64,000 nt of DNA from a bacterium. GTDB lineage: Bacteria > Patescibacteriota > Minisyncoccia > Phycocordibacterales > Zambryskibacteraceae. Where the stretch lies: contig JAUSGI010000008.1 of NCBI GenBank assembly GCA_030649135.1, positions 81,935 through 145,934 of the forward strand, read 5' to 3'. The stretch's first letter is position 1, and every line of letters starts with the position of its first letter. The notes under the pieces are model-generated. The model worked only from the letters and a program-made list of their open reading frames with translations. It was not told the DNA's origin and made no database searches. Positions 7,657 through 61,588 of the stretch are shown piece after piece. The translations under genes and the position numbers were made by a program.

Positions 7657-8501
7657 AGCATATTAAATATTTTCAGCCGGCCGAGAACCACTTTTTTCAT
7701 TTCCTCCACTCCTTCGGCCAAGAATTTATAAGGTGCTATTTCACCCGACTTAAGACCTTCCTCGATTCCCTCTTTGTAAGCAACCCTTAATTCGGTATTG
7801 ATATGAATAATTCTGATACCGGCCTTGATTGCCTCCCGAAATTCCTCTTCTTGATTTCCGGAGCCGCCGTGCAGCACCAACGGTATGCCGACAGTTTCCG
7901 CAATAGCCTGAATGCGTTCGATATTAAGCTTGGGCTCACCTGTTTTCACTATGCCGTGAACGTTACCGACGGATGGCGCAAGCATGGCCACACCGGTAGC
8001 TCTCACAAACTCAAGTGCCTCTTCAGGCTTGGTTTGTGTTTCAAGCGAAACACCTTCAGGCAGGGCATCAAGCAGTTTGGATGATTTGCCTATAAAACCA
8101 AGTTCCCCCTCTACTATTATTTCCGTATTTTTAGAACGAGCATATTCCACGACCTCTCTGGTCATTTTAACGTTTTCCTCAAGTGTTTTATCTGCAGCAT
8201 CGATGATAACGCTATCGACTCCTGCATCAATGGCCAACTTTGCCTTTTCCACGGAATAAGTATGGTCGGCGTTAATAAAAACCGGTAGACCGTTTGCCCT
8301 TGCGGTTTTTACCAAAGAAATCACCTCCTCAAGTCCGATGAAGTCCCGCTCCCCTTCGGAAACCCCGATGATGACCGGGACACCCAGCTCCTTAGCTGTC
8401 TCAACTACCGCCTTGAACCCTTCCGAGTCTGAAATATTGAAATGGCCTATAGCCACTTGTTTCTCTTTCGCCCAAGCTAGGTATTCCCTTAAAGTTTTCA
8501 T
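7653..8501 (-). CDS. fba: Class II fructose/tagatose-bisphosphate aldolase
   Basis: The ORF is open back to 8765, but the conserved N-terminus 'MKTLREYLAWAKEKQVAIGHFN' starts at the ATG at 8501. The 'HGGSG' and 'DHT' metal-binding region matches class II aldolases. Confidence 0.8.
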   Translation of the reverse strand: MKTLREYLAWAKEKQVAIGHFNISDSEGFKAVVETAKELGVPVIIGVSEGERDFIGLEEVISLVKTARANGLPVFINADHTYSVEKAKLAIDAGVDSVIIDAADKTLEENVKMTREVVEYARSKNTEIIVEGELGFIGKSSKLLDALPEGVSLETQTKPEEALEFVRATGVAMLAPSVGNVHGIVKTGEPKLNIERIQAIAETVGIPLVLHGGSGNQEEEFREAIKAGIRIIHINTELRVAYKEGIEEGLKSGEIAPYKFLAEGVEEMKKVVLGRLKIFNML

Positions 8502-8532
8502 TCTTACAATTCTATCATGATATACTTTCTGT

Positions 8533-9519
8533 ATGCATGACTTCGTAGCCATAGGCGAGACTACTATTGACGCGTTTATAAAGCTTGAGAATGCGAGTGT
8601 CAATTGCGATGTAGATAAGGAGAATTGCAAAATCTGTCTGCCTTTTGCGGCCAAAGTGCCGTATGAGTTCGTGGTCGAGGTACCGGCGGTCGGTAATGCG
8701 GGCAATGCCTCCGTGTCTGCTAGTCGCTTGGGCTTGAAGTCCGCCCTCGTTGCCAATATCGGCAAAGATAGCGATGGAGAAAAGTGTTTGCGCGCACTGG
8801 AGGCAGACGGAGTCTCGACCGAATATATCGGTATCCAGGAGGGTGAGAAAACTAATTACCACTACGTGCTCTGGTACGAAAGTGATAGAACTATTCTCCA
8901 GAAACATAGTAAATTTATATACAAACTACCGGATATTGGAGAGCCAAGCTGGGTATATCTGACTTCTCTTGGGAAAGATTCGGATAAATATCATACCGAG
9001 ATTGTCGAGTATCTTAAAGGCCATCCCAACATCAAACTTGCCTTCCAACCTGGCATATTTCAAATTGGTCTCGGTAAAGATAAGCTCAAAGATATCTATG
9101 GGAGAACAGATATATTTTTTTGTAACGTTGGAGAAGCAGAAAAAATTCTGGGCATCGATACTTTGGGCATAAACGAGCTTTTAAAACGTATGCAGGCTCT
9201 CGGACCCAAAATTGTGGTTATCACAGATGGACCGAATGGAGCATATGTCTTTGACGGTAAGGATATCTTGTTCCAGCCACCCTACCCCGATCCCAAGCCC
9301 CCTTACGAACGCACCGGAGCGGGCGATGCCTTTGCTTCGACGACGGTGGCCGCTCTGGCGCTTGGTAATGACCTCCCTACCGCTCTCTCATGGGGTGCAG
9401 TCAATTCAATGTCCGTGGTTCAACAAGTCGGCGCCCAAAAAGGTTTGCTCACCCGCCCTCAAATCGAAGAATATTTGAAAACTGCCCCTCCCGATTTCAA
9501 AGCCAAGCAAGTAAAATAA
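8533..9519 (+). CDS. PfkB-family carbohydrate/nucleoside kinase (ribokinase-like)
   Basis: Carries the anion-hole motif 'TGAGDAF' and the ribokinase-like fold signature 'AVGNAGN'. Confidence 0.7.
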   Translation: MHDFVAIGETTIDAFIKLENASVNCDVDKENCKICLPFAAKVPYEFVVEVPAVGNAGNASVSASRLGLKSALVANIGKDSDGEKCLRALEADGVSTEYIGIQEGEKTNYHYVLWYESDRTILQKHSKFIYKLPDIGEPSWVYLTSLGKDSDKYHTEIVEYLKGHPNIKLAFQPGIFQIGLGKDKLKDIYGRTDIFFCNVGEAEKILGIDTLGINELLKRMQALGPKIVVITDGPNGAYVFDGKDILFQPPYPDPKPPYERTGAGDAFASTTVAALALGNDLPTALSWGAVNSMSVVQQVGAQKGLLTRPQIEEYLKTAPPDFKAKQVK

Positions 9520-14477: not shown

Positions 14478-14503
14478 CAAACCCCGCCAGAGGCGGGGTT
14501 TGT
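14478..14503 (-). terminator. Rho-independent terminator built on a CCCCGCC-AGA-GGCGGGG palindrome (REP-like family member)
   Basis: 'aaaccccgccagaggcggggttt' is a perfect 7-bp GC stem flanked by A and T runs, so it can terminate in either orientation. It lies 23 nt downstream of the RRM gene stop. Confidence 0.65.
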
Positions 14504-18694: not shown

Positions 18695-19075
18695 TTATTT
18701 AATGACTGCTAAAATATTGTCTTCTTTCAAGAGATAAAGTTCCTCGCCGCCCTGTTCAACTTCGTCATATCCGTATTTGGAAAAGATGACAACGTCGCCA
18801 ACCTTAAGACGCACCGGTACCAATTTTCCCTCGATCCATTTCCCCTCCCCGACGGCTAAAACTTTACCTTGAGCCGATTTCTCTTTGGTCACGGATTCAG
18901 GGAGAATAAAATTGAGTGGAGACTTTTTACCTTGAGCTTGCCCCGCCACGGCGGGGCGCAGTCGAATCTCTTCTTCGGTAAAAGGACGAACCAGAACTCT
19001 GTCCCCAAAAGGCTTGATCTGGGCTTTTGCTTGCCCGGAGTTTTTGCGAGGGGTTTTTGTATTTTTCTTTTTCAT
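18695..19075 (-). CDS. groS: Co-chaperonin GroES with a Lys-rich N-terminal extension and an internal in-frame insertion
   Basis: 'IKPFGDRVLVRP' and 'GKVLAVGEG' are GroES motifs. The protein is 126 aa against about 95 aa typical. The extra 'EIRLRPAVAGQAQ' segment is encoded by the palindrome at 18940-18957. Confidence 0.85.
   Translation of the reverse strand: MKKKNTKTPRKNSGQAKAQIKPFGDRVLVRPFTEEEIRLRPAVAGQAQGKKSPLNFILPESVTKEKSAQGKVLAVGEGKWIEGKLVPVRLKVGDVVIFSKYGYDEVEQGGEELYLLKEDNILAVIK
18940..18957. repeat. REP-like palindrome CCCCGCC-ACG-GCGGGG, in-frame inside groES
   Basis: 'gccccgccacggcggggc' with flank 'ggcggggcaagctc' on the coding strand. It is identical in core to the copy at 28582-28597 and shares the flank with 61547-61560. 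Confidence 0.7.
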
Positions 19076-22971: not shown

Positions 22972-24119
22972 TGCGATTCATACCGGTTTTCGCGGCCAGC
23001 CTCTTTCTCTCCGTACACTTTGGCAGTACCCTTTACTTCCATTCTTCTTTCTTAAACGATTACTTCAAACCTAATGTCGTCAGTTTTCTCTTTCTCCTTG
23101 GAGCCCTCGGTAATATTTTTCTTTTTTTATTTGCTCCTAAGTTGATTCAACGATTCGGCAAGCGTCCTCTGCTCTTTTTTTCCCTCGTCCTAACCGCCGC
23201 CAGTACGTTTATTTTCGCTTTAACTATCACCCGACCAGTGATTATTTTTGCTTTTATCGTCTACAGTAGTTTCCTGCCCATGGTTTATTACTGCCTTGAT
23301 GTTTTCCTGGAAGAACTATCGACAAATGCCAAGACGGGGGAAATCCGGGGTATTTATCTTACTGTATTTAATGCCGGCATAGTCGTGGGACCGCTTATTC
23401 TGGCGATCTTGGCGCAAGAGGGCCCGCCTACTAAATTTCTGTATTTAGTGGCGGGTCTGTTGTTAATACCGCCGGCGATACTAGCGCTTTTTTCTTTCAA
23501 ATCTCAACAGCCTAAAGCGCACAGCCCCTACCACCATTCCCTGCGATTGCCATTCGGCGATTGGTGGCATTCCAAAAACATTCAACGCGTTACTTTAGCC
23601 AGACTAACACTCGAATTGTTCTTCGCCTTTATGGTTATCTATGTTCCAATTTATCTCCATACTGGGCTTGGTTTCGCGTGGTCAGAACTTGGTATTATTT
23701 TCACCGTTATGCTTCTGCCTTTTGTGCTGTTCGAGTGGCCAGCAGGCGAACTTGCCGACCGTCTCCTGGGGGAAAAAGAGATTATGAGTGCCGGTTTTTT
23801 CATTACTGGCATATCTCTGCTCATCATGCCTTTTATAGGGAAAGTATTTTGGGCATGGATGGCTATCCTTTTTATCTCAAGAGTTGGAGCGAGTCTAATC
23901 GAGGCGATGACCGAAAGTTATTTCTTTAAACATATCAACGCGCGTGATACCGGTCTGATAAGCATTTTTCGCTTAACCCGTGCGTCCGGTTTCGTTTTGG
24001 GCGCCATAGTCGCCACTCTGACTTTAAATTTTTTCTCGTTCGATAAAATTTTTTTTGCTCTGGCGGTGATAGTCTTCTTCGGTCTCAAACAAAGTTTGTC
24101 TCTCAGAGATACGCGGTAG
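22968..24119 (+). CDS. MFS transporter
   Basis: 383 aa with about 11-12 predicted TM helices, typical of the MFS fold. Confidence 0.65.
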   Translation: MMRFIPVFAASLFLSVHFGSTLYFHSSFLNDYFKPNVVSFLFLLGALGNIFLFLFAPKLIQRFGKRPLLFFSLVLTAASTFIFALTITRPVIIFAFIVYSSFLPMVYYCLDVFLEELSTNAKTGEIRGIYLTVFNAGIVVGPLILAILAQEGPPTKFLYLVAGLLLIPPAILALFSFKSQQPKAHSPYHHSLRLPFGDWWHSKNIQRVTLARLTLELFFAFMVIYVPIYLHTGLGFAWSELGIIFTVMLLPFVLFEWPAGELADRLLGEKEIMSAGFFITGISLLIMPFIGKVFWAWMAILFISRVGASLIEAMTESYFFKHINARDTGLISIFRLTRASGFVLGAIVATLTLNFFSFDKIFFALAVIVFFGLKQSLSLRDTR

Positions 24120-24130
24120 AAAAATTTATA

Positions 24131-24162
24131 AAAAAATAGGACCCGCCAAGTAGGCCGGGTCC
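24131..24162 (-). terminator. Hairpin terminator for island gene a (GGACCCGCC...GGCCGGGTCC followed by a T-run on the minus strand)
   Basis: An A-run at 24131-24137 on the plus strand precedes a GC hairpin at 24139-24162. Confidence 0.5.
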
Positions 24163-24199
24163 TGTGGCAGTTTGGGGAGGTCTGCCAACCTTTACTTCT

Positions 24200-24388
24200 C
24201 TACTCGGCGGGTCGGAACTTACGACGAGGCCGACTTTGTTTCAGGTCTTCGTCACACCCTACCATCTCCCTTTCTATCACATCCTGGTCAGAGAGGTCTT
24301 CATCCTCCGACCCATGCATCAGTCCAAAACCCTTAAGGAGTCGAATTTCCTTACTCGAAGGATCTACGCCTGTCTTTCTCTTTTTCAT
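24200..24388 (-). CDS. Island gene a: small acidic hypothetical protein
   Basis: 62 aa. SD 'AAGGAG' lies 6 nt upstream of the ATG. The gene sits in the ~60% GC segment and is followed by a hairpin terminator. Confidence 0.5.
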   Translation of the reverse strand: MKKRKTGVDPSSKEIRLLKGFGLMHGSEDEDLSDQDVIEREMVGCDEDLKQSRPRRKFRPAE

Positions 24389-24514
24389 CTGGGCTCCTTA
24401 TGTCCTGCTTCCCTTTCGATTATGTTCAGGGTGAAGGCTTACAGACACTAACGCTCTGTCCTTTAGAGTGGCATGAACAAGCTAGTTTGTCAATTAGTTG
24501 TAATCGTTGTATAG

Positions 24515-24544
24515 AAAAAGGACCCTCCATGCTGGCAGGGTCCC
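24515..24544 (-). terminator. Hairpin terminator for island gene b (AAAAA-GGACCCTCC-N-AGGGTCC)
   Basis: 'aaaaaggaccctccatgctggcagggtccc'. It is near-identical in design to the hairpin at 25517-25545. Confidence 0.5.
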
Positions 24545-24621
24545 GTTGTGAGTTGAGGCCGTGTCCTCAACTCGTTTGTACTTAGGCGTGACATCGGCAC
24601 GCATTGGGATCTGAAACTCTG

Positions 24622-24852
24622 CTAGTCCCCGATCGCCCCACTTCGTGAGAACGGGCGAGAGACGCCCGGTAACACCCGGGACGGATCCATCCCGAGGCGC
24701 TGCCTCAGCCACGCGACCCACTCCGGATAGCTCGGAGTGAGAAGCACGACGACCTCGTCGTAGGTCGGCGTGTCCCCAAGCACGTCGCACACGGCTGGCA
24801 AAAGAAGCCGGCGTGTTTCCTTGTCGAGTCTCCGACCCGATGCGTCATTCAT
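24622..24852 (-). CDS. Island gene b: hypothetical protein
   Basis: 76 aa with a strong SD 'GAGGAGAAGG' upstream of the ATG. The gene is GC-rich. Confidence 0.5.
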   Translation of the reverse strand: MNDASGRRLDKETRRLLLPAVCDVLGDTPTYDEVVVLLTPSYPEWVAWLRQRLGMDPSRVLPGVSRPFSRSGAIGD

Positions 24853-25085
24853 TGCCTTCTCCTCATCGCGCTTTGCGCGACTTTAAACATTTAGCAGTGC
24901 GTCCTCTTGCGAGGCCTATACGCACTGCGGTTCAGCCCCCTCTGTGCGGGGAATCGATACTTGATTATATTTTCTTTCTCAAAGAACTAACTGTTTCGCC
25001 CTTTCGGACTCATCAGCGCAGATACACATCTGCGAACAGCGGGAAGTTTTGCTGAGATACTTCCCGAAACTCTGGGTTTGCACGG

Positions 25086-25406
25086 TTACCCCTTCTTCTT
25101 CTTGCTACCGGCACCCATGCCAGCGGCCATCCGGCGCTGCTCCTCCGCGCGCTCGCTCCGGTGGGCGAGGTAGCGCTTGTGCGCCGCCTCACGGATGGAG
25201 GCCGAGAACTCGGTCTCCTTCCGACGCCGCTCGGACAGCATGCGCCTGGCGCACGCCAGGCGTGGCCGCCAGAAATCGGAGGTCGCGAGTTGCTTGTCGA
25301 GCTCGACCGCGGCGATATCCGCCGCAACGGTCGAAGTGGCGACCTGCACCGGCAGGGTGCAGGCCAGAAACTCTATCACTCGGCCAATGGAGCGTGTCGC
25401 ATTCAT
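25086..25406 (-). CDS. Island gene c: hypothetical Ala/Arg-rich protein with a KKKKG tail
   Basis: 106 aa with SD 'AAGGAGAA'. Upstream on the minus strand lies TTGACAA-N17-TATCAT. Two hairpins follow downstream. Confidence 0.5.
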   Translation of the reverse strand: MNATRSIGRVIEFLACTLPVQVATSTVAADIAAVELDKQLATSDFWRPRLACARRMLSERRRKETEFSASIREAAHKRYLAHRSERAEEQRRMAAGMGAGSKKKKG

Positions 25407-25516
25407 GGCGTTCTCCTTATCGTGCCTCCCCTTCGTCTATACTTAGGGTGAGGACTTTCTAGCTACAATGATAGCATAATACAACTTATTTGTCAATGGC
25501 TTTAAATAGTTAAAAG

Positions 25517-25545
25517 TAAAAGGGCCCTCCGTGTAGGCAGGGCCC
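25517..25545 (-). terminator. Hairpin terminator for island gene d (AAAA-GGGCCCTCC-N-AGGGCCC)
   Basis: 'aaaagggccctccgtgtaggcagggccc'. Confidence 0.5.
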
Positions 25546-25564
25546 AGTCGAAACGCCACCTAGT

Positions 25565-25960
25565 CTAGTAACTGGTGGGGAAAGCAGATGTCAGCGCCTC
25601 CCCCTGGTCGCTTGCCGGGTTGGGGTTGAACCAAACCCGAGAGATGGACCCATGGCCGATGTGATACACGCCGGCCAGAGTACATGAGCCATCCCGCTGT
25701 GCGGGGTGATGTACGAACACCCCGAAACGCAGACGGGCCAGCGCGGCCGCGATGCAGAACGGCACATCCGCGACGGCATAGACGAAGCCATCGCCATGCT
25801 CGCGGACGTAGTCCGCGAGCCCATCCGTGGTGACGAACACCGTGGGGTCCTTCACGATCTCCACGTAAACACCGTGGAGAGTTCGCATCGCCCGCCGCTG
25901 TGTGGGCGACATGTCGTAACGCGATAACCAATAAATCCTCCCGATGTAAATTCTGTTCAT
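25565..25960 (-). CDS. Island gene d: hypothetical protein
   Basis: 131 aa starting at the ATG at 25960 ('MNRIYIGRIYW...'), with SD 'GGGGGAA'. Upstream on the minus strand lies TTGACAA-N17-TATTAG. No family recognised. Confidence 0.5.
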   Translation of the reverse strand: MNRIYIGRIYWLSRYDMSPTQRRAMRTLHGVYVEIVKDPTVFVTTDGLADYVREHGDGFVYAVADVPFCIAAALARLRFGVFVHHPAQRDGSCTLAGVYHIGHGSISRVWFNPNPASDQGEALTSAFPTSY

Positions 25961-26068
25961 GGTTCCCCCACTCTGCCTCCCATTTCTCGGAGGGCTATAG
26001 GTAATACAACCTTGGTCTGCTCTCACTAATAGCACAGCACAATTCTCTTGTCAACAGCGTCCATAAAT

Positions 26069-28426: not shown

Positions 28427-28663
28427 TGCGGGATCGTCTAATGGTAGCCTGCCCGCCATCGCTGGGAGTTGAGCTGGGAGATCGTCTAATGGTAGGACAC
28501 CTCCCTCTGAAGGAGGTTATCTTGGTTCGAGTCCAAGTCTCCCAGCTCAGGCCCTAGCAGGCGGGGACATCGCCATCCCTGCCCCGCCGTGGCGGGGTGA
28601 AAAGGCGAGCATCTTGCTTGTCCCGGCCAGCCGGGCGGGAGTCGAGTCCAAGTCCCGCAGCCA
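28427..28663 (+). pseudogene. Fragmented tRNA-Gln(UUG)-like gene interrupted by GC-rich palindromic insertions and by an intact tRNA-Gln(CUG)
   Basis: Segments match the intact tRNA-Gln(TTG) at 39279-39352 in collinear order. 28427-28447 matches nt 1-21 (21/21). 'GACATCGCC' at 28567-28575 matches nt 22-30 (9/9). 'GGCGAGCATCTTG' at 28604-28616 matches nt 39-51 (12/13). 28647-28663 matches 'TCCAAGTCCCGCAGCCA' (17/17). They are separated by inserts that include ccccgccgtggcgggg. Confidence 0.55.
28475..28545 (+). tRNA. tRNA-Gln (anticodon CTG)
   Basis: Hand fold. Acceptor is TGGGAGA/TCTCCCA with a U1-A72 pair, as in bacterial tRNA-Gln. D-stem is GTC/GAC. Anticodon stem CCTCC/GGAGG encloses loop CTCTGAA. 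The T-arm is CTTGG-TTCGAGT-CCAAG. No CCA is encoded. Confidence 0.75.
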
Positions 28664-39703: not shown

Positions 39704-40747
39704 CTATTTGACAGTGTCGGCGAGAGCAAGCTCGAGAGCCAGTTCTGGGATACTGGTGCGGCCGGAGTCTTCGTAAGCAGTAATGAAGCGCAGGAGAACG
39801 TCGGCAGTTAGGTCAGTCCCAGCTTTGTCTCTAAGGGTTTGCAAAAACTTAAAGTCATCTTCACTAACTTCTCCGGCAATATATTCGTCCATACCTGCTT
39901 TGAGCCGCAGGAGAAAGAGGAAACGCAGGCGCTCGAGAATAAGTTTGGCGAAAAGTTTCATCTCGGCATTGGCTCCGGCGGCGCTCTGGATTGCTTTCAT
40001 CCCCTTTTCTAAATCTTTTTCGACAATCGATTCGAGAATCTGGCGCACCAGCTCCGCTTTCGGCGCACCAGTTACTTGTTCTATCTCCTCTCTGGTTATC
40101 TTCTTACTTTTGGTAGAAGAAAGCACTTTTTCCAAAATCCCATGCGCATCGCGGAAAGAGCCGTCACCCAGTAGCGCCACCAGTTCCGCCGCGGCCGGCT
40201 CAAGCGCTGCGCCCTCCTTTTTCGCCACCGAGAGTGCGAAATCTTTGAGCGTCGCTTGATTGGGTTGTTTGAACGAAAAAGTTTGGCAACGAGAAATCAC
40301 CGTCTCCGGCACTTTCTCAAGTTCGGTGGTAGCTAAGATGAAGACCACATGCGCCGGTGGTTCCTCAAGAGTCTTTAGAAACGCGTTCCAGGCATCTTTG
40401 GTAAGCATGTGCACTTCGTCGATAATGTAGACCTTATATTTGGACTCGAATGGCAAAGTATTGACCGATTCCCGAATCTCCCGCACGTCGTCGATACCAC
40501 GGTTGGAAGCGGCGTCCATCTCGACGAGGTCATTGGCCGAGGTGCCAATTTCTCGCGACAAAATTCTCGCCATGGAAGTCTTGCCGGTACCTCGTGAGCC
40601 AGAGAAAAGGTAGGCATGGGAAATATTGCCGAGTTTGATTGCCCCTTCCAAAACTTTGACAATATGACCCTGCCCGATAATATCTCCAAAGGTTTGGGGA
40701 CGATATTTGCGGTAAAGCACTCCCCCGCTCTTCTCTCCTTTTTTCAT
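39704..40747 (-). CDS. dnaX: DNA polymerase III subunit gamma/tau (short)
   Basis: 'YRPQTFGDIIGQ', Walker A 'GSRGTGKTS', 'DEVHML' and sensor motifs. Confidence 0.85.
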   Translation of the reverse strand: MKKGEKSGGVLYRKYRPQTFGDIIGQGHIVKVLEGAIKLGNISHAYLFSGSRGTGKTSMARILSREIGTSANDLVEMDAASNRGIDDVREIRESVNTLPFESKYKVYIIDEVHMLTKDAWNAFLKTLEEPPAHVVFILATTELEKVPETVISRCQTFSFKQPNQATLKDFALSVAKKEGAALEPAAAELVALLGDGSFRDAHGILEKVLSSTKSKKITREEIEQVTGAPKAELVRQILESIVEKDLEKGMKAIQSAAGANAEMKLFAKLILERLRFLFLLRLKAGMDEYIAGEVSEDDFKFLQTLRDKAGTDLTADVLLRFITAYEDSGRTSIPELALELALADTVK

Positions 40748-41727
40748 GAACGTAGTATATCAGATACTATTTTGTTAACCTCGTTTGCGTTGTTCGTTTC
40801 CATAAGTTTGGCGCGTAAATCCCCTGCTTTATCAAAGCCCGTAACGTAGGCCTTAAAATGTTTCTTCATCACAGAAAAGTTTTTGTACCCACCGAGCAGT
40901 TCTTCAAATAACTTTGTGTGCTCAACCAGCACCCGCAGTTTTTCTTCGGTTGCCGGAACATATCCTTCCACAAATAGCCACGGGTTTCCGAAAATGGCCC
41001 GGCCGAGCATGACACCATCACAGCCCGTCTCTTCGACTCTCATCCTTGCTTCTTTCAAATCTTTAACATCCCCATTACCCAAAATTAAAGTGTCTTTACC
41101 ACTTGCATCACGAATCTCGACTGCCAGTTTGACAAACTCCCAACGAGCGGGCACCTTCGACATTTCTTTCCTGGTACGAGCATGAATGGTAACCATCGCC
41201 ACTCCCTCTTTAAGCATTTCTGACAGCCAGCTCTCCAGGTCAGGACGACTGTACCCTATACGAGTTTTGACCGAGACAGGTAGTGTGCTAGCCCCTTCTT
41301 TAGCCGCCCTTACAAGCTCCCGAGCCAGCACCACGTTCTTCATAAGTGATGCGCCGGCACCTTGTTTCTCGATACTTTTGTCCGGACAACCCATATTTAT
41401 ATCGACACCATCAAAGCCAAGCTCCTTTGCGAGCTCGGCGGCTTTTTTCATATGTTCCGGAGAGGAGGTAAAGAATTGCGCCACGATTGGCCGCTCCGCT
41501 TCGCTATATTCCAGATTCTTCAAAAGTTTCTTTTTCCCCTCTTCCGGCGCAAGTGCCAAGCCGTCGGCAGAAGTAAATTCTGTCCACATCACGGCGGGTT
41601 TACCCCGCCCACCTAGGCGGGGCGAGCCGTACTTAGCGATTATTCTGCGAAAAGCGGCATCCGTAACATCCGCCATGGGAGCGAGGACGAAAACAGGTTT
41701 TTCTATTTTCTGCCAGAAATTATCCAT
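40744..41727 (-). CDS. dus: tRNA-dihydrouridine synthase, carrying an in-frame 10-aa palindromic insertion
   Basis: 'FVLAPMADVTDAAFRRII', 'MWTEF' and the TIM-barrel Dus family. The inserted 'SPRLGGRGKP' lies between the conserved 'AKYG' and 'AVMWTEF' and is encoded by the palindrome at 41603-41622. Confidence 0.8.
   Translation of the reverse strand: MDNFWQKIEKPVFVLAPMADVTDAAFRRIIAKYGSPRLGGRGKPAVMWTEFTSADGLALAPEEGKKKLLKNLEYSEAERPIVAQFFTSSPEHMKKAAELAKELGFDGVDINMGCPDKSIEKQGAGASLMKNVVLARELVRAAKEGASTLPVSVKTRIGYSRPDLESWLSEMLKEGVAMVTIHARTRKEMSKVPARWEFVKLAVEIRDASGKDTLILGNGDVKDLKEARMRVEETGCDGVMLGRAIFGNPWLFVEGYVPATEEKLRVLVEHTKLFEELLGGYKNFSVMKKHFKAYVTGFDKAGDLRAKLMETNNANEVNKIVSDILRS
41603..41622. repeat. 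REP-like palindrome CCCCGCC-CACCTA-GGCGGGG, in-frame inside dus
   Basis: 'ccccgcccacctaggcgggg', with an adjacent ggcggg-ttta-ccccgcc half overlapping at 41594-41609. Confidence 0.7.
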
Positions 41728-49254: not shown

Positions 49255-51462
49255 GTGATGCGTTTACTTATAGTAGAGTCGCCGTCGAAAGCCAAGACTA
49301 TCGAGAAATATCTTGGTAAAGATTTTCGCGTGGTCGCGTCCGTCGGGCATATTCGCGACCTTCCCAAATCAAATAAGGCGGCTATTGATGTACCGGGTGG
49401 CTTCATACCGCACTACGAAGTGGTGAAGGGAAAAGAAAGAGTGATTTCGGAAATTAAGTCATTGTCCAAAAAAGCCGACGAAGTCTTGCTCGCGACCGAC
49501 CCAGACCGCGAAGGTGAGGCTATTGCTTGGCATGTCGAGCAGGCGGTTGGATTGAAGTCTCCGAAACGTATTGTCTTCTATGAGATAACCAAAGAAGCCG
49601 TAGAAGAAGCGCTCGAACATCCCCGAGAAATTGACACCAACCTTCGGGAAGCACAGGAAGCAAGGAGGGTTTTGGACCGTTTGGTCGGCTATGACCTTTC
49701 CGGACTAATCTGGAAAAAGGTGCGTTACGGTCTGTCCGCCGGCAGAGTGCAATCCCCCGCTCTGCGCATCGTAATGGAGCGCGAGCGCGAAATACGCGCC
49801 TTTCTACCGGTCACTTTCTGGACTATTACTGCCAATCTCGAAGATAAATCTAAAAATAATCTGGTTTTCGTCTGTTCCCAAGAACCAAATAAAAAAGAGG
49901 ATGTAGAAAATATCATTAATTCTGCCAAGGTCTCCCCTTGGCAAGTTACGGACATCAAGGAAACCAAAGTGGCGCGCGCTCCGCGCGCGCCCTTCATCAC
50001 CTCGACCTTGCAACAGACAGCAAGTTCTCGCCTTGGCATGGCACCCTCTCGCTCTATGTACTTTGCCCAGAGACTTTACGAAGCCGGACACATTACTTAT
50101 ATGCGTACCGACTCCACCAATCTTGGTGGTGCGGCGCGCAAAGAAATAGAGGAGGTGGTGAAGAAAAAATACGGAGCGAATTATTTTGAATCGCACGTCT
50201 TTGCGAAAAAATCTAAAAACGCACAAGAAGCTCACGAAGCCATTCGGCCAACGCACATGAATGTAGAAACGGCTGGGGCGACAGATGGGGAGAAAAAACT
50301 TTACCAACTAATCTGGCAGAGAACCATCTCAAGCCAAATGAAACCGGCGGAAGTCATGCGGACCAAAGTCGTGGCCAACACAGAGGTTAAACCTCTGGGA
50401 TTGGAGTCCGGAGGTTTAACCTCTGGGGAAATGCCGGACTTCTGGCTCAATGGCTCGCGCATTATCTTTGACGGCTGGCTTAAGGCCGACCCACGCTCGG
50501 CTAGTGAGGATATTATCTTGCCGAAAATCTTGACAGGCGACCCGCTCAAGCTCTTGAATATAAGCTCGGAAGAAAAGCTAACCGAACCGCCCGCTCGATA
50601 TTCCGAAGCAGGATTAATTAAAGAACTTGAAAAACGCGGCATCGGCCGACCGTCGACCTATGCTTCCATTATCAAGACACTTGACGACCGTGGCTATGTG
50701 GAAAAAAGGGCTAAAGCCCTTTTCCCCACCGACACAGGTGAAGTGGTCAGCTCATTTCTCGAAGAGCATTTCCCTACCTATATCAGTGATTCCTTCACTG
50801 CGGAAATGGAGGACGAGCTGGACGACATCGCCAACGGTACGCGCACATATAAGAAAACTCTGGCTGATTTTTATACGCCATTTTCAAAAGAAGTAAAAGA
50901 GCGAGATAAAGTCGCCAAAATCACTAACCTAGGCAAAGCGCCAGCGGACTTGAAGTGCCCCGTCTGCGGAGCTAACATGATTATCAAGCTCGGCAAGAGC
51001 GGTAAGTTCTTGTCCTGCGAGAAGTACCCGGAATGCCAAGGGGCACGCACCATGGAAGGCAAGGAGCTTGAAGGGCCTAAAGATACCGGAGAAATATGCC
51101 CTAAGTGCGGCAAGGGTAATCTGGTCACTCGGGAAGGCAAGTTCGGCATGTTCACGGCTTGTTCGCGTTTCCCCAAGTGCAAGTTTGTCAAAAAAGATGA
51201 GGAGCAAGAGAAAGCAAACTCCACCGGTGTAAAATGTCCCGTATGTAAAACTGGTTTTCTGTCGGAACGGCGCGGCCGCTTCGGAATATTCTACAGCTGC
51301 TCAAACTATCCCGACTGTAAGTATGCCATCAATGCTAAGCCTACCGGTGAGACCTGCAAACTCTGTGGTAGTTTGATGATGGAAGGTACGAAAACTATTC
51401 CGGAGAGATGTTCAGATAAAAAATGTCCCAATCACAACCCACACAAAATCAATCAGACCTAG
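49255..51462 (+). CDS. topA: DNA topoisomerase I with C-terminal zinc ribbons
   Basis: Toprim 'LIVESPSKAKTI', the active-site region 'GHITYMRTDS' and four C4 zinc ribbons. Confidence 0.9.
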   Translation: MMRLLIVESPSKAKTIEKYLGKDFRVVASVGHIRDLPKSNKAAIDVPGGFIPHYEVVKGKERVISEIKSLSKKADEVLLATDPDREGEAIAWHVEQAVGLKSPKRIVFYEITKEAVEEALEHPREIDTNLREAQEARRVLDRLVGYDLSGLIWKKVRYGLSAGRVQSPALRIVMEREREIRAFLPVTFWTITANLEDKSKNNLVFVCSQEPNKKEDVENIINSAKVSPWQVTDIKETKVARAPRAPFITSTLQQTASSRLGMAPSRSMYFAQRLYEAGHITYMRTDSTNLGGAARKEIEEVVKKKYGANYFESHVFAKKSKNAQEAHEAIRPTHMNVETAGATDGEKKLYQLIWQRTISSQMKPAEVMRTKVVANTEVKPLGLESGGLTSGEMPDFWLNGSRIIFDGWLKADPRSASEDIILPKILTGDPLKLLNISSEEKLTEPPARYSEAGLIKELEKRGIGRPSTYASIIKTLDDRGYVEKRAKALFPTDTGEVVSSFLEEHFPTYISDSFTAEMEDELDDIANGTRTYKKTLADFYTPFSKEVKERDKVAKITNLGKAPADLKCPVCGANMIIKLGKSGKFLSCEKYPECQGARTMEGKELEGPKDTGEICPKCGKGNLVTREGKFGMFTACSRFPKCKFVKKDEEQEKANSTGVKCPVCKTGFLSERRGRFGIFYSCSNYPDCKYAINAKPTGETCKLCGSLMMEGTKTIPERCSDKKCPNHNPHKINQT

Positions 51463-52967
51463 ACCCACTCGCCAACATTATAAGGAGCATGGTCAACCCT
51501 TTGCCGGAAGACGTTGTCACCGTCAAGAAGGCCTTTACCTTCGCTCTCCGCGCTCACCAAGGGCACGAGAGACTATCCGGGGAACCTTATTTAAAACATC
51601 TGTCCGAAACGGCACTGATACTGGCAGAGCTGGGCGCGGGAGGGCCAACGATTGCAGCTGGATTACTTCACGATACGATAGAAGATGTTGGGGTTAAAAG
51701 AGAGGAAATTGTATCTGAATTTGGAGAAGAAGTCGCTTTCTTGGTTGACGGTGTTACCAAGCTCGGACATCTTAAATATAAAGGTGTTAACCGACACAAC
51801 GAGAGCTTGCGTAAATTATTCGTAGCCATGTCGGAAGATATCAGAGTGCTTCTCATCAAGCTCGCGGACCGCCTACATAATATGAGAACGCTCTCTCATG
51901 TGCCGAAAGAAAAACAAAAAAGGATAGCGGCGGAGACACTCGAAATCTACGCCCCCATCGCCTACCGACTGGGTATCAGAAAGATTAATCGCGAGCTTGA
52001 AGACTTATCCTTCCCTTACGTATATCCCAAGGAATACGAAGAGATGCGAAAAATGCTCAAAGAACGACACTCGGATAGAGTAGAGAGTTTAGAAAAATTT
52101 TCACACTCTGTTCAGAAGGCGCTGGCCAAAGAAGGTTTAACCAAAGCCAAGACAGAGTATCGGGTAAAGGGACTCTATAGTCTATACAAAAAATATCTTA
52201 GATATGATAAAGACCTGGAAAAGATCTATGACGTGAGCGCCATGCGTATCCTAGTGGACTCTATAGCAGATTGTTATCGAGTGCTGGGAGTGATACATGG
52301 ACGCTGGAGACCTTTACCGCGTCGTATCAAAGATTACATCGCTTTCCCCAAACCGAATGGCTATCAGGCCCTACATACAACTATCTTCATTGGAGACGGC
52401 AATATTGTGGAAGTCCAGATTAAAACTCACGAGATGTATCGGTATTCCGAATACGGTATCGCTTCCCACCTTTACTATAAAGAAAACGGTCGCAATAAAA
52501 ATGTCTTGGCCTGGGTCTATGCCCTTTTGCCAAAATCTAAAAAAGCAAACGGCACAGGTACTGTTAAAAGTAAGGATGTGCCCAAATGGATATCGGAGTT
52601 GGCCACATATGAAGAGCCCTCCCAAAATCAACGGCTCTTCCGAGAAAGGCTCACAAGCGACTTTTTCAGCCAAAGAATATTTGTTTTCTCCCCGAAGGGC
52701 GACGTGGTGGACTTGCCTATTGACTCAACCCCCATCGACTTTGCCTATTCGATACATTCCGACATCGGAGACCGCATGACGGGCAGCAAAGTGAATGGCA
52801 AGTTGGTCTCACTTGACACCAAGCTTCACAATGGAGATATAGTTTTCATCATGACTAGCGAATCGGCTAAACCTAATCGCAAATGGCTTGAGATGACCAA
52901 AACCTCAATGGCTCGCCGCCATATCCGACATCAACTTGGGAAACTTAGGAAACCTGACCGCGCTTAG
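51423..52967 (+). CDS. rel: RelA/SpoT-family (p)ppGpp synthetase/hydrolase (HD + synthetase + TGS, no ACT domain)
   Basis: HD 'HDTIEDV', synthetase 'ILVDSIADCYRVLGVIHGRWRP...DYIAFPKPNGYQALHTT' and TGS 'IFVFSPKGDVVDLP'. The start may be the second ATG at 51489. Confidence 0.85.
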   Translation: MSQSQPTQNQSDLDPLANIIRSMVNPLPEDVVTVKKAFTFALRAHQGHERLSGEPYLKHLSETALILAELGAGGPTIAAGLLHDTIEDVGVKREEIVSEFGEEVAFLVDGVTKLGHLKYKGVNRHNESLRKLFVAMSEDIRVLLIKLADRLHNMRTLSHVPKEKQKRIAAETLEIYAPIAYRLGIRKINRELEDLSFPYVYPKEYEEMRKMLKERHSDRVESLEKFSHSVQKALAKEGLTKAKTEYRVKGLYSLYKKYLRYDKDLEKIYDVSAMRILVDSIADCYRVLGVIHGRWRPLPRRIKDYIAFPKPNGYQALHTTIFIGDGNIVEVQIKTHEMYRYSEYGIASHLYYKENGRNKNVLAWVYALLPKSKKANGTGTVKSKDVPKWISELATYEEPSQNQRLFRERLTSDFFSQRIFVFSPKGDVVDLPIDSTPIDFAYSIHSDIGDRMTGSKVNGKLVSLDTKLHNGDIVFIMTSESAKPNRKWLEMTKTSMARRHIRHQLGKLRKPDRA

Positions 52968-53926
52968 ATACTGAAATTGGCGACAGAATAGAGAGACTCG
53001 TCGTCTTCGGATTTTACTGGCTCGTCCTCTGCGAGAATTTTGTCCTCCTCTGTCAGAGCTGGAACGTCTGCTATAGACATGTTTACTTCATGTGAGTTTT
53101 TAAATTCTTTATCCACAATAATTCTTTCAAGTAGAGCTCGTAGGTCATCTTTATTGAAAAAGTCTATCGTCACTCGCCCGCCTTCTTCCTTCTTTTCTAT
53201 TCTCACTCGAGTACCCAATTTCTCTTTAAACAAGCCCTCGATATCTATAAGTTCTTGGTCGATCAACTTGCGGGCACGCTCGACCGCAATGTGACGTGCG
53301 ATACCTTCCGCCTCCCTGACGTTGAGTTTTTTGAAAATAATTTCTTTGAAAAGCGTTTCTTGCTCCTGTGGCCTGTCGGTAAGCATCATGAGTGGCCGGG
53401 TATGGCCCTCGCTAATCTTATTTTCCGATAGAGCGTTAATAATATATTCCGGCAAAGAAAGAATGCGCAGAGAGTTTGAGACAAACTCACGACTCTTCCC
53501 TACTTTCTTGCCGATCTCGTGATGCTTGAACTTAAATTCTTTCGACAGGCGGTCGAAAGCGCGGGCACGGTCAACGGGACTAAGGTCCTCGCGCTGAATG
53601 TTTTCGATGATAGCGAGCTCAAGTTTCATTAGGTCAGTTTCCTCACCATCGCGAATGAGTACTGGTACTTGCGCGAGGCCAGCTAGGCGAGCGGCGCGGA
53701 GGCGCCGCTCGCCGGCCACCAATTCATATTCCACACCAATCCCCCCCTCCTCCTTTTCCACTTCTTTACGCGTCACCACAAGAGCCTGAAGCACGCCATA
53801 TTGGCGGATGGAATCCGCCAAACTCTTGAGCTGAACTTCATCGAAGTCACGGCGGGGCTGGTATGGGTTCGGCTTAATTTTATCCACCTCTATCCAGAAA
53901 ATAGAGTCGTTATAGAATCGGGACAT
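52964..53926 (-). CDS. parB: ParB/Spo0J-family partition protein
   Basis: ParB box 'GVLQALVV...ELVAGERRLRAARLAG', an HTH and an acidic C-terminus. Confidence 0.8.
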   Translation of the reverse strand: MSRFYNDSIFWIEVDKIKPNPYQPRRDFDEVQLKSLADSIRQYGVLQALVVTRKEVEKEEGGIGVEYELVAGERRLRAARLAGLAQVPVLIRDGEETDLMKLELAIIENIQREDLSPVDRARAFDRLSKEFKFKHHEIGKKVGKSREFVSNSLRILSLPEYIINALSENKISEGHTRPLMMLTDRPQEQETLFKEIIFKKLNVREAEGIARHIAVERARKLIDQELIDIEGLFKEKLGTRVRIEKKEEGGRVTIDFFNKDDLRALLERIIVDKEFKNSHEVNMSIADVPALTEEDKILAEDEPVKSEDDESLYSVANFSI

Positions 53927-61538: not shown

Positions 61539-61588
61539 CGCCCCGCCTCGGCGGGGCAAGCTCCGCCTTTACCCCGCTGTGGCGGGGA
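61539..61588. repeat. Two tandem REP-like palindromes (CCGCCCCGCC-TC-GGCGGGGC and ACCCCGC-TGT-GGCGGGGA) between the GIY-YIG gene and clpB
   Basis: The first copy carries the 'ggcggggcaagct' flank, identical to the groES-internal copy. On the minus strand the pair would act as a terminator for clpB. Confidence 0.65.

Follow-up and report, generated by a model that had tools for sequence, protein, structure and literature searches.

RPE-1-type palindromic elements (RPE, Rickettsia palindromic elements) are 100-150 bp long, have a consensus of their own and are confined to Rickettsia. RPE are said to lie in frame inside genes, in work attributed to Ogata and colleagues in 2000 and to Claverie and Ogata in 2003. 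Short repetitive extragenic palindromic (REP) sequences bearing GTAG or CGTC tags occur inside open reading frames (ORFs) of several phyla, including those of tRNA-modifying enzymes (Di Nocera et al., 2013; PMC3733652), and in recB of Xanthomonas different REPs were found at about the same site in two species (PMC3733652). Here we analysed a 64,000-nucleotide stretch (the window) of a contig from a member of the Zambryskibacteraceae, of the Patescibacteria or candidate phyla radiation (CPR), and in particular a 24-nt segment inside its gene for tRNA-dihydrouridine synthase (Dus). We consider it likely that this segment is a secondarily inserted copy of a short GC-rich hairpin repeat of the REP type that circulates in the Parcubacteria (CPR), and that its insertion was directed by sequence. 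In-frame insertions of REP and RPE are already known; recurrence at the same site and look-alike targets are the added feature of this locus.

Like RPE, the unit belongs to a palindromic family found between genes and in frame in conserved housekeeping genes, where the encoded peptide forms part of a surface loop without disrupting the host protein; the copy in Dus and a second one in GroES are both in frame and surface-placed, as RPE insertions are. It differs from RPE in its length (24 nt net, about 30 nt with the adjoining tag), in being a simple single hairpin, in its CPR host and in recurring at the same nucleotide across lineages. Like REP sequences, it falls into the 20-40 nt class, consists of a single stem-loop with short conserved end tags and, in the window, is mostly extragenic with some intragenic copies. 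Unlike in REP, the tags are (C)TCG and T^AAACC (or CAAGCTC) and not GTAG or CGTC (the caret marks the insertion junction, here and below), copy number is low, the arms are invariant while the loops vary, and a REP-associated tyrosine transposase (RAYT) was not found in the 64-kb window. Because neither the length of RPE nor the tags of REP are matched, we filed the unit as a member of neither; it is not an RPE, being too short and having different end tags. By analogy, the unit would work as RPE and REP elements do. The original prediction, made from the DNA of the window, had called the insert RPE-like, and this holds as an analogy (in frame, in a tolerant loop), whereas at 24-30 nt against 100-150 bp the unit lies nearer to the short REP-type palindromes. 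In the literature searched, there was no earlier report of palindromic, REP or RAYT elements in CPR bacteria.

The assignment of the host gene to Dus was borne out by Pfam, where PF01207 (Dus) covers residues 15-321 of the protein (E 1.4e-59; 202 bits against a cut-off of 20.4). The Dus structures 1vhn and 6ei9 in the PDB match the window protein, and both are gapped where the insert sits. The coding strand at the site reads TAC GGC TCG CCC CGC CTA GGT GGG CGG GGT AAA CCC GCC GTG and is translated as Y G S P R L G G R G K P A V. We aligned the 120 best homologs, all from Zambryskibacteria, Parcubacteria or other Patescibacteria, of which 118 were informative. Of these, 114 are uninterrupted and read ...AKY-GKPD-VMWTEF, and the G-K-P adjoining the insert is native in the orthologs. 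The ten-residue insertion proposed earlier (SPRLGGRGKP, 30 nt), set in a conserved ...AKYG-AVMWTEF, thus had to be corrected on both counts: the net insertion is eight residues or 24 nt, K-P being native in the 114 homologs, and the orthologs carry GKPD in place of the proposed G-A junction. The 30-nt stretch does not stand as the net indel, but it does as a recurring unit, since AAACC always adjoins the unit elsewhere. With 85% identity, P0007 (locus L085) is the closest ortholog; it shares the ClpB-like/Dus/DnaX gene order and has the empty site AAA TAT GGC^AAA CCG GAT, and empty Dus sites in general read GGY AAA CCN. Placement of the insert is ambiguous by one Gly codon, the alternative being 41605-41628 (GSPRLGGR). 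By these alignments the Dus segment is an insertion, and by its conserved arms and end tags ((C)TCG...GGCGGGG-T, then AAACC) a member of a family. An assembly artefact was ruled out, as the insert is found in independent NCBI, JGI and ENA assemblies.

We then examined where the insert lies in the protein. An AlphaFold2 model of the window Dus, built with 50 homologs, had a mean predicted local distance difference test score (pLDDT) of 89.5. In it the insert forms a coil between helix 24-34 (α1) and strand 46-48 (β2), with pLDDT below 50 at residues 38-40; the low-confidence coil spans residues 35-45 and includes the native G-K-P-A. In the standard triosephosphate isomerase (TIM) barrel, α-to-β connections lie on the face opposite the catalytic strand ends, which bind flavin mononucleotide (FMN). 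Judged from this topology, the α1-β2 loop would face away from FMN and the tRNA site, and for that reason the enzyme is most likely unaffected by the insert.

The same insert was present in other Dus genes. In P0064 (locus L081) the site reads GGC TCG CCC CGC CCA AAT GGG CGG GGT AAA CCC GAT, which agrees with the window unit at all 23 arm and tag bases and departs from it at three of the six loop bases, in proteins that are 75% identical. The nearest relatives of P0064 (P0044 and P0052; 83%) have an empty site, as do those of the window Dus (P0007 and P0009; 85%). A scan of JGI metagenomes for TCGCCCCGCC-N2-10-GGCGGGGTAAACC returned 18 contigs. The Dus genes of L099, L101 and L102 come from a third clade, which is Nomurabacteria-like and has 58-63% identity to the other two filled lineages; their proteins are 71-77% identical to one another. 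All three have the insert at the same nucleotide with the loop CAGATG, and they are interspersed with the empty relatives L026, L021 and L028 in a neighbour-joining (NJ) tree. In this comparison, at least three separate Dus lineages have the insert at one and the same nucleotide position. Across the filled lineages the 90-nt flanks are 42-80% identical, as against 26-29 of 29 positions in the unit, and the arm codons are invariant at synonymous sites. Because the arm codons never vary synonymously, constraint or recency appears to act on the DNA and not on the peptide, and selection for the loop at the protein level was ruled out on the same ground. Homologs with a near-identical loop of the same length thus do exist (L081, L099, L101 and L102), but the loop is encoded by the same palindromic DNA and the nearest relatives are empty. 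Given the identity at synonymous sites and the empty relatives, we take these loops to reflect recurrent insertion rather than a native loop.

The unit also occurs in MurG, in five Yanofskybacteria-like contigs, where it gives AKYF[SPRPDGRG]KPGK with the loop CGGATG, one nucleotide from the Dus loop of L099; most MurG orthologs are uninterrupted (YFKPGK). TAT TTC stands before the unit and AAA CCG after it; in empty MurG genes the site reads AAG TAT TTT^AAA CCC GGC and AAA TAC TTC^AAA CCA GGC, the general form being TTY AAA CCN. Dus and MurG share TCG-CCCCGCC-YRRRTG-GGCGGGG-T (24 nt) between AAR TAY NNY and native AAA CCN, and the peptide pattern Ser-Pro-Arg-x-x-Gly-Arg-Gly. Since flank similarity of that extent is not attributable to protein selection, the likeness of the two target sites argues for sequence-directed insertion. 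AAACC adjoins the unit in every metagenome context, as the search pattern forced it to, and in L081 it does so unforced.

Additional contexts included a reverse-orientation in-frame copy in an alpha/beta hydrolase of L095 (GLPRLVSEAGRV) and two GC-richer contigs of uncertain affiliation. In seven contigs (L093, L096, L097, L098, L103, L104 and L107) the tagged hairpin has a conserved position upstream of rplJ-rplL, at a distance of about 100-170 nt, where it forms part of a longer helix with covarying outer pairs (AGGAYTTAC / GTAAACCTRY; for example L097, 2095-2170), and may be the CPR version of an L10-leader-like element. No Rfam family matched any metagenome context of the tagged unit, the hairpin upstream of rplJ included, and a scan of viral contigs for the tagged unit gave a single unrelated hit.

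Within the window, perfect CCCCGCC(N2-12)GGCGGGG palindromes occur five times, against 0.00 expected from shuffles. Allowing up to two arm mismatches gave about 8 sites (0.9 expected), and the heptamer GGCGGGG is present 24 times (7.4 expected). GGCGGGGYAARC occurs three times against 0.03 expected, and three family copies carry a YAARC tag. That the palindrome family has further members was thus confirmed for the window; one of them, in GroES, is also in frame (Table 1). Family stems are 7-9 bp and loops 4-6 nt. Of the two adjacent intergenic copies, that at 61541 likewise carries ...GGCGGGGCAAGCTC, and TAAAGG stands next to that at 61572-61587 on the minus strand. A census of GC-rich hairpins in all fetched loci minus the pattern-selected contigs found the TAAACC tag only on the two Dus copies, so that among the relatives sampled the family is rare. 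An Rfam scan of the window at gathering scores returned tRNAs only. A DNA-uptake sequence was ruled out by the far too low copy density and the variable loops, and an intrinsic terminator fits only the copy at 14482 among the family copies; for the Dus copy it was ruled out, since it lies inside an ORF and is followed by UAAACCC without a U-run.

We compared the GroES copy with its orthologs in an alignment of 120 sequences. The GroES mobile loop, in which it lies, binds GroEL. The insert is nested inside an older 'ALRQAQG' unit (TTCGACAAGCTCAGGG) that is widespread in the clade. It is missing from L091, where the empty site reads CTT CGA^CAA GCT, and is common to the four closest GroES sequences, its right arm decaying in L087 and L089. 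At the 3' end of SerRS in L081 (5670-5718), nearly the same 21 nt followed by CAAGCTC stand in place of the stop codon and lengthen the protein by RPAPAVAGQAHYK; the empty site in L085 (6320-6345) reads GTTCGA^TAAACTCAC. The GroES and SerRS copies have both flanks in common, TTCGA^YAARCTCA. The older unit, TTCGACAAGCTCAGGG(CAAGCT), at 10415-10438 of L085, encodes 'LRQAQG' in GroES (L091) and 'RSTSSGQA' in Dus of the closest relative, in different frames. It is also present in the Dus genes of P0007, P0026 and P0096 and makes up a second, weakly palindromic family of short inserts.

The palindrome CCCCGCC/GGCGGGG and the preserved reading frame of the Dus insert were as originally predicted. 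RNA folding of its 45-nt context gave -24.9 kcal/mol (z -2.3), and DNA folding of the hairpin about -12.5 kcal/mol on either strand. A permissive Rfam scan of 91 nt around the site found no significant family. A further half-site had been proposed to overlap the palindrome; CCCGCC is indeed present at 41593-41598, but its last three bases come from a lineage-specific Asp-to-Ala change, GAT to GCC. The GCC codon creates the outer helix UACGGC/GCCGUG around the hairpin in the minimum free energy fold. This extension of base pairing is probably a secondary change, templated or selected. Flanking codons are predicted to pair around the hairpin in three lineages (window 41590-41634; L081 7870-7914; L099 3205-3257), and in the window this pairing depends on the unique Asp-to-Ala codon. 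The predicted pairing may be due to chance, to small inverted repeats being preferred as targets, or to adjustment after insertion.

How such a unit might move can be outlined from these features. Insertion would be directed by sequence to the 5' side of AAACC, with a further preference for AAR TAY NNY in the other flank, and would probably proceed through a single-stranded hairpin intermediate. A Y1/HUH enzyme, IS200/IS605- or RAYT-like, could act on the hairpin in trans. Alternatively, the hairpin-bearing strand could be copied or annealed under the guidance of short homology on both flanks, which would account for the similarity found on both. Selection would retain only copies that are a multiple of three long, stop-free and placed in tolerant loops; the coding copies are all multiples of three (21, 24, 24 and 36 nt) and lack stop codons. 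A translational bypass or hop element is unlikely, as copies that are in frame and stop-free would make skipping needless.

Both the Y1/HUH and the flank-homology route would fit the evidence. Insertion sequences of the IS200/IS605 group (Y1 HUH) resemble the unit in being hairpin-centred single-strand elements with a fixed 4-5 nt target at one end and no target duplication, which fits the invariant AAACC. They differ in needing two different subterminal hairpins and in having lengths of hundreds of bases or more; they are not known to mobilise a lone 24-nt hairpin, and their model does not predict the similarity of the other flank (AAR TAY NNY). On L082, a related Zambryskibacteria contig, a Y1_Tnp gene (8364-9101) is bracketed by inverted REP copies, ACTGTGCAAAG-N5-CTTTGCACAGT, and contains a third copy in frame (8575-8601); this REP sequence differs from the window unit. 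Coding palindromes of organelles (Nematomorpha mitochondria, PMC6649704; Volvox, PMC2670323) are likewise perfect inverted repeats that lie in frame in genes and are translated, but they are much longer or far commoner, have no conserved end tags and do not recur at the same site (PMC6649704; PMC2670323). A miniature inverted-repeat transposable element (MITE), with terminal inverted repeats, a target-site duplication and at least about 50 bp, was rejected for a unit of 24 nt without duplication at its junctions.

We also entertain, with considerable doubt, a stronger version, in which the 24-nt hairpin is repeatedly written into different CPR lineages at AAR TAY NNY^AAACC (in the sister variant, TTCGA^YAARCTC) by a flank-guided, homing-like process undescribed for REP or RPE. 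Such a process could be, for example, single-strand annealing in which the stem joins two short homology arms, or the work of a dedicated HUH enzyme. If this were true, hairpins of this kind would generally supply essential CPR proteins with new loops (Dus, MurG, the GroES mobile loop, SerRS and TopA).

A number of observations weigh against a circulating repeat inserted in a sequence-directed manner. The insert junctions show neither a target-site duplication nor any other footprint of transposition, and tblastn with a relative's Y1 transposase found no such gene in the 64-kb window. Of the full 30-nt unit the window has a single copy, with no second one at up to three mismatches; the unit recurs in the Dus and MurG genes of other lineages. 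The other window copies match the Dus copy only in the 7-nt arms and have different loops. The copy at 14482 may be no more than a terminator. Copies are sparse, at about 6-8 per 64 kb with 4-6 extragenic (window only), and about 1.5 Mb of other Parcubacteria loci contained almost no further copies. The metagenome scan demanded exact arms and tags, so that decayed copies were invisible to it, and the 23/23 identity of L099, L101 and L102 is in part an effect of ascertainment, while the loops and L081 were unforced. The case for independent Dus insertions is built on the NJ tree and on identities between pairs, which fall short of a robust phylogeny.

The identity of arms and tags across the filled lineages could also reflect a single ancient insertion, or a native loop, that was kept for a function of the hairpin (an mRNA structure in Dus, or a site bound by protein or DNA) and was then lost precisely in most lineages. 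The 6-nt loop common to L099, L101 and L102 despite their 71-77% Dus identity is in keeping with this, as are the outer helices predicted in three lineages and the lack of any decayed version of the insert among about 200 orthologs. A near-identical hairpin with covarying flanks at a conserved place upstream of rplJ adds that the motif may function somewhere. We nevertheless judge a single origin unlikely, since every filled lineage has closer empty relatives and many independent precise losses would be needed. The same unit is moreover found in unrelated genes (MurG and, reversed, the alpha/beta hydrolase) and at intergenic sites, the sister copy in GroES decays freely in relatives, and no Rfam family matches.

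Two other origins appear far less credible than repeated insertion of a hairpin repeat. The palindrome could have arisen de novo in Dus by replication slippage or intrastrand template switching (quasi-palindrome mutation), with the other hairpins convergent; GC-rich 7-nt stems are generic, and the neighbouring GAT-to-GCC change resembles a templated correction that extends pairing. The arms, however, are not copied from flanking Dus sequence, five identical-arm copies stand in the window where none is expected, and the same 23-29 nt recur with their non-palindromic TCG and T tags in MurG and elsewhere. The MurG copy largely refutes a de novo origin, which we hold to be extremely improbable. 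The type I-E repeat of clustered regularly interspaced short palindromic repeats (CRISPR) has the form ...CCCCGC-N4-GCGGGG-AUAAACCG, and the Dus stem followed by UAAACC appears to resemble it in shape and 3' tag; the best coding-strand Rfam hit, CRISPR-DR28, did not reach significance (14.1 bits, E 2.8; gathering score 35). It is nonetheless very unlikely that the unit stems from, or works as, a lone CRISPR-type repeat or some other functional RNA module, with activity of that system spreading it into genes. There were no arrays, each of the 18 metagenome contigs and the window having one copy (no search was made for cas genes), and no CRISPR-DR family matched significantly in Rfam.

Proteins of CPR bacteria (Patescibacteria) are rich in unexplained short lineage-specific inserts. 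The Dus insert indicates that at least some of them are translated small DNA hairpin repeats, and would carry over to this group a proposal made first for Rickettsia, in which new protein loops are seeded by palindromic repeats. Inserts of this origin would bear on annotation and structure prediction. Phylogenetic use of indels would be affected too, since identical inserts at one site can be homoplastic. With one insertion point common to several Dus lineages and a similar site in MurG, target choice by such tiny elements becomes testable.

Table 1. Coordinates of the Dus insert, its host gene and related features in the window.
Feature	Position	Strand	Remarks
Dus gene	40744..41727	minus	Intact ORF, 327 aa, host of the insertion; ORF list, Pfam, AlphaFold2 model, PDB matches
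Net insertion TCG CCC CGC CTA GGT GGG CGG GGT	41602..41625	minus	24 nt, SPRLGGRG, residues 35-42; alignment, empty syntenic ortholog, PDB gap
Perfect palindrome CCCCGCC-N6-GGCGGGG	41603..41622		Arms 41603-41609 and 41616-41622, loop 41610-41615
AAACC, putative target or tag	41597..41601	minus	Native Lys codon and first two bases of Pro codon, directly 3' of insert; empty sites
GCC (Ala) codon	41593..41595	minus	Asp (GAY) in orthologs, Ala only in P0001 among 120 homologs; makes half-site CCCGCC
Second in-frame family copy, CTGCGCCCCGCCGTGGCGGGG	18941..18961	minus	21 nt, LRPAVAG; mobile loop of GroES (18695-19075, Pfam Cpn10)
Intergenic copy	14482..14498		13-bp extended arms, T-runs on both sides; looks like a bidirectional terminator
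Intergenic copy	28582..28597		Downstream of tRNA-Gln (28475-28546); palindrome search
Two adjacent intergenic copies	61541..61587		61541-61556 perfect, then CAAGCTC as in GroES; 61572-61587 with one arm mismatch
In-frame insert TEVKPLGLESGG	50380..50426	plus	36 nt, CAGAGGTTAAACCTCTG-type palindromes; topoisomerase I (TopA, 49255-51462); absent in L085 ortholog

Compared with its syntenic relatives, the window has four in-frame insertions of 7 aa or more. Three are palindromic, namely those in Dus, GroES and topoisomerase I. Dus orthologs carry a dozen further sporadic short inserts, and in other Parcubacteria the α1-β2 loop of Dus contains unrelated perfect palindromes: 15-bp arms without a loop in L013 (10040-), 10-bp arms in L040 (10049-), 13-bp AT-rich arms in L046 (678-) and a tandemly duplicated hairpin in L012 (1242-). 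On this sequence evidence, the α1-β2 loop of Dus would be a general landing place.

The region 24000-26000 of the window has a G+C content of 0.55, compared to about 0.46, with GC-rich hairpins dense at 24138-25880. Its ORFs have no Pfam match and it gave no Rfam hit; foreign DNA or an unrecognised structured RNA is possible. In the N-terminal domain of ParB (52964-53926, minus strand), a perfect palindrome with a 12-bp stem, GGCGAGCGGCGC-GGAG-GCGCCGCTCGCC, lies at 53686-53713. The Pfam match of this domain is about 10 residues longer than the profile, and the palindrome may be another in-frame hairpin insert.

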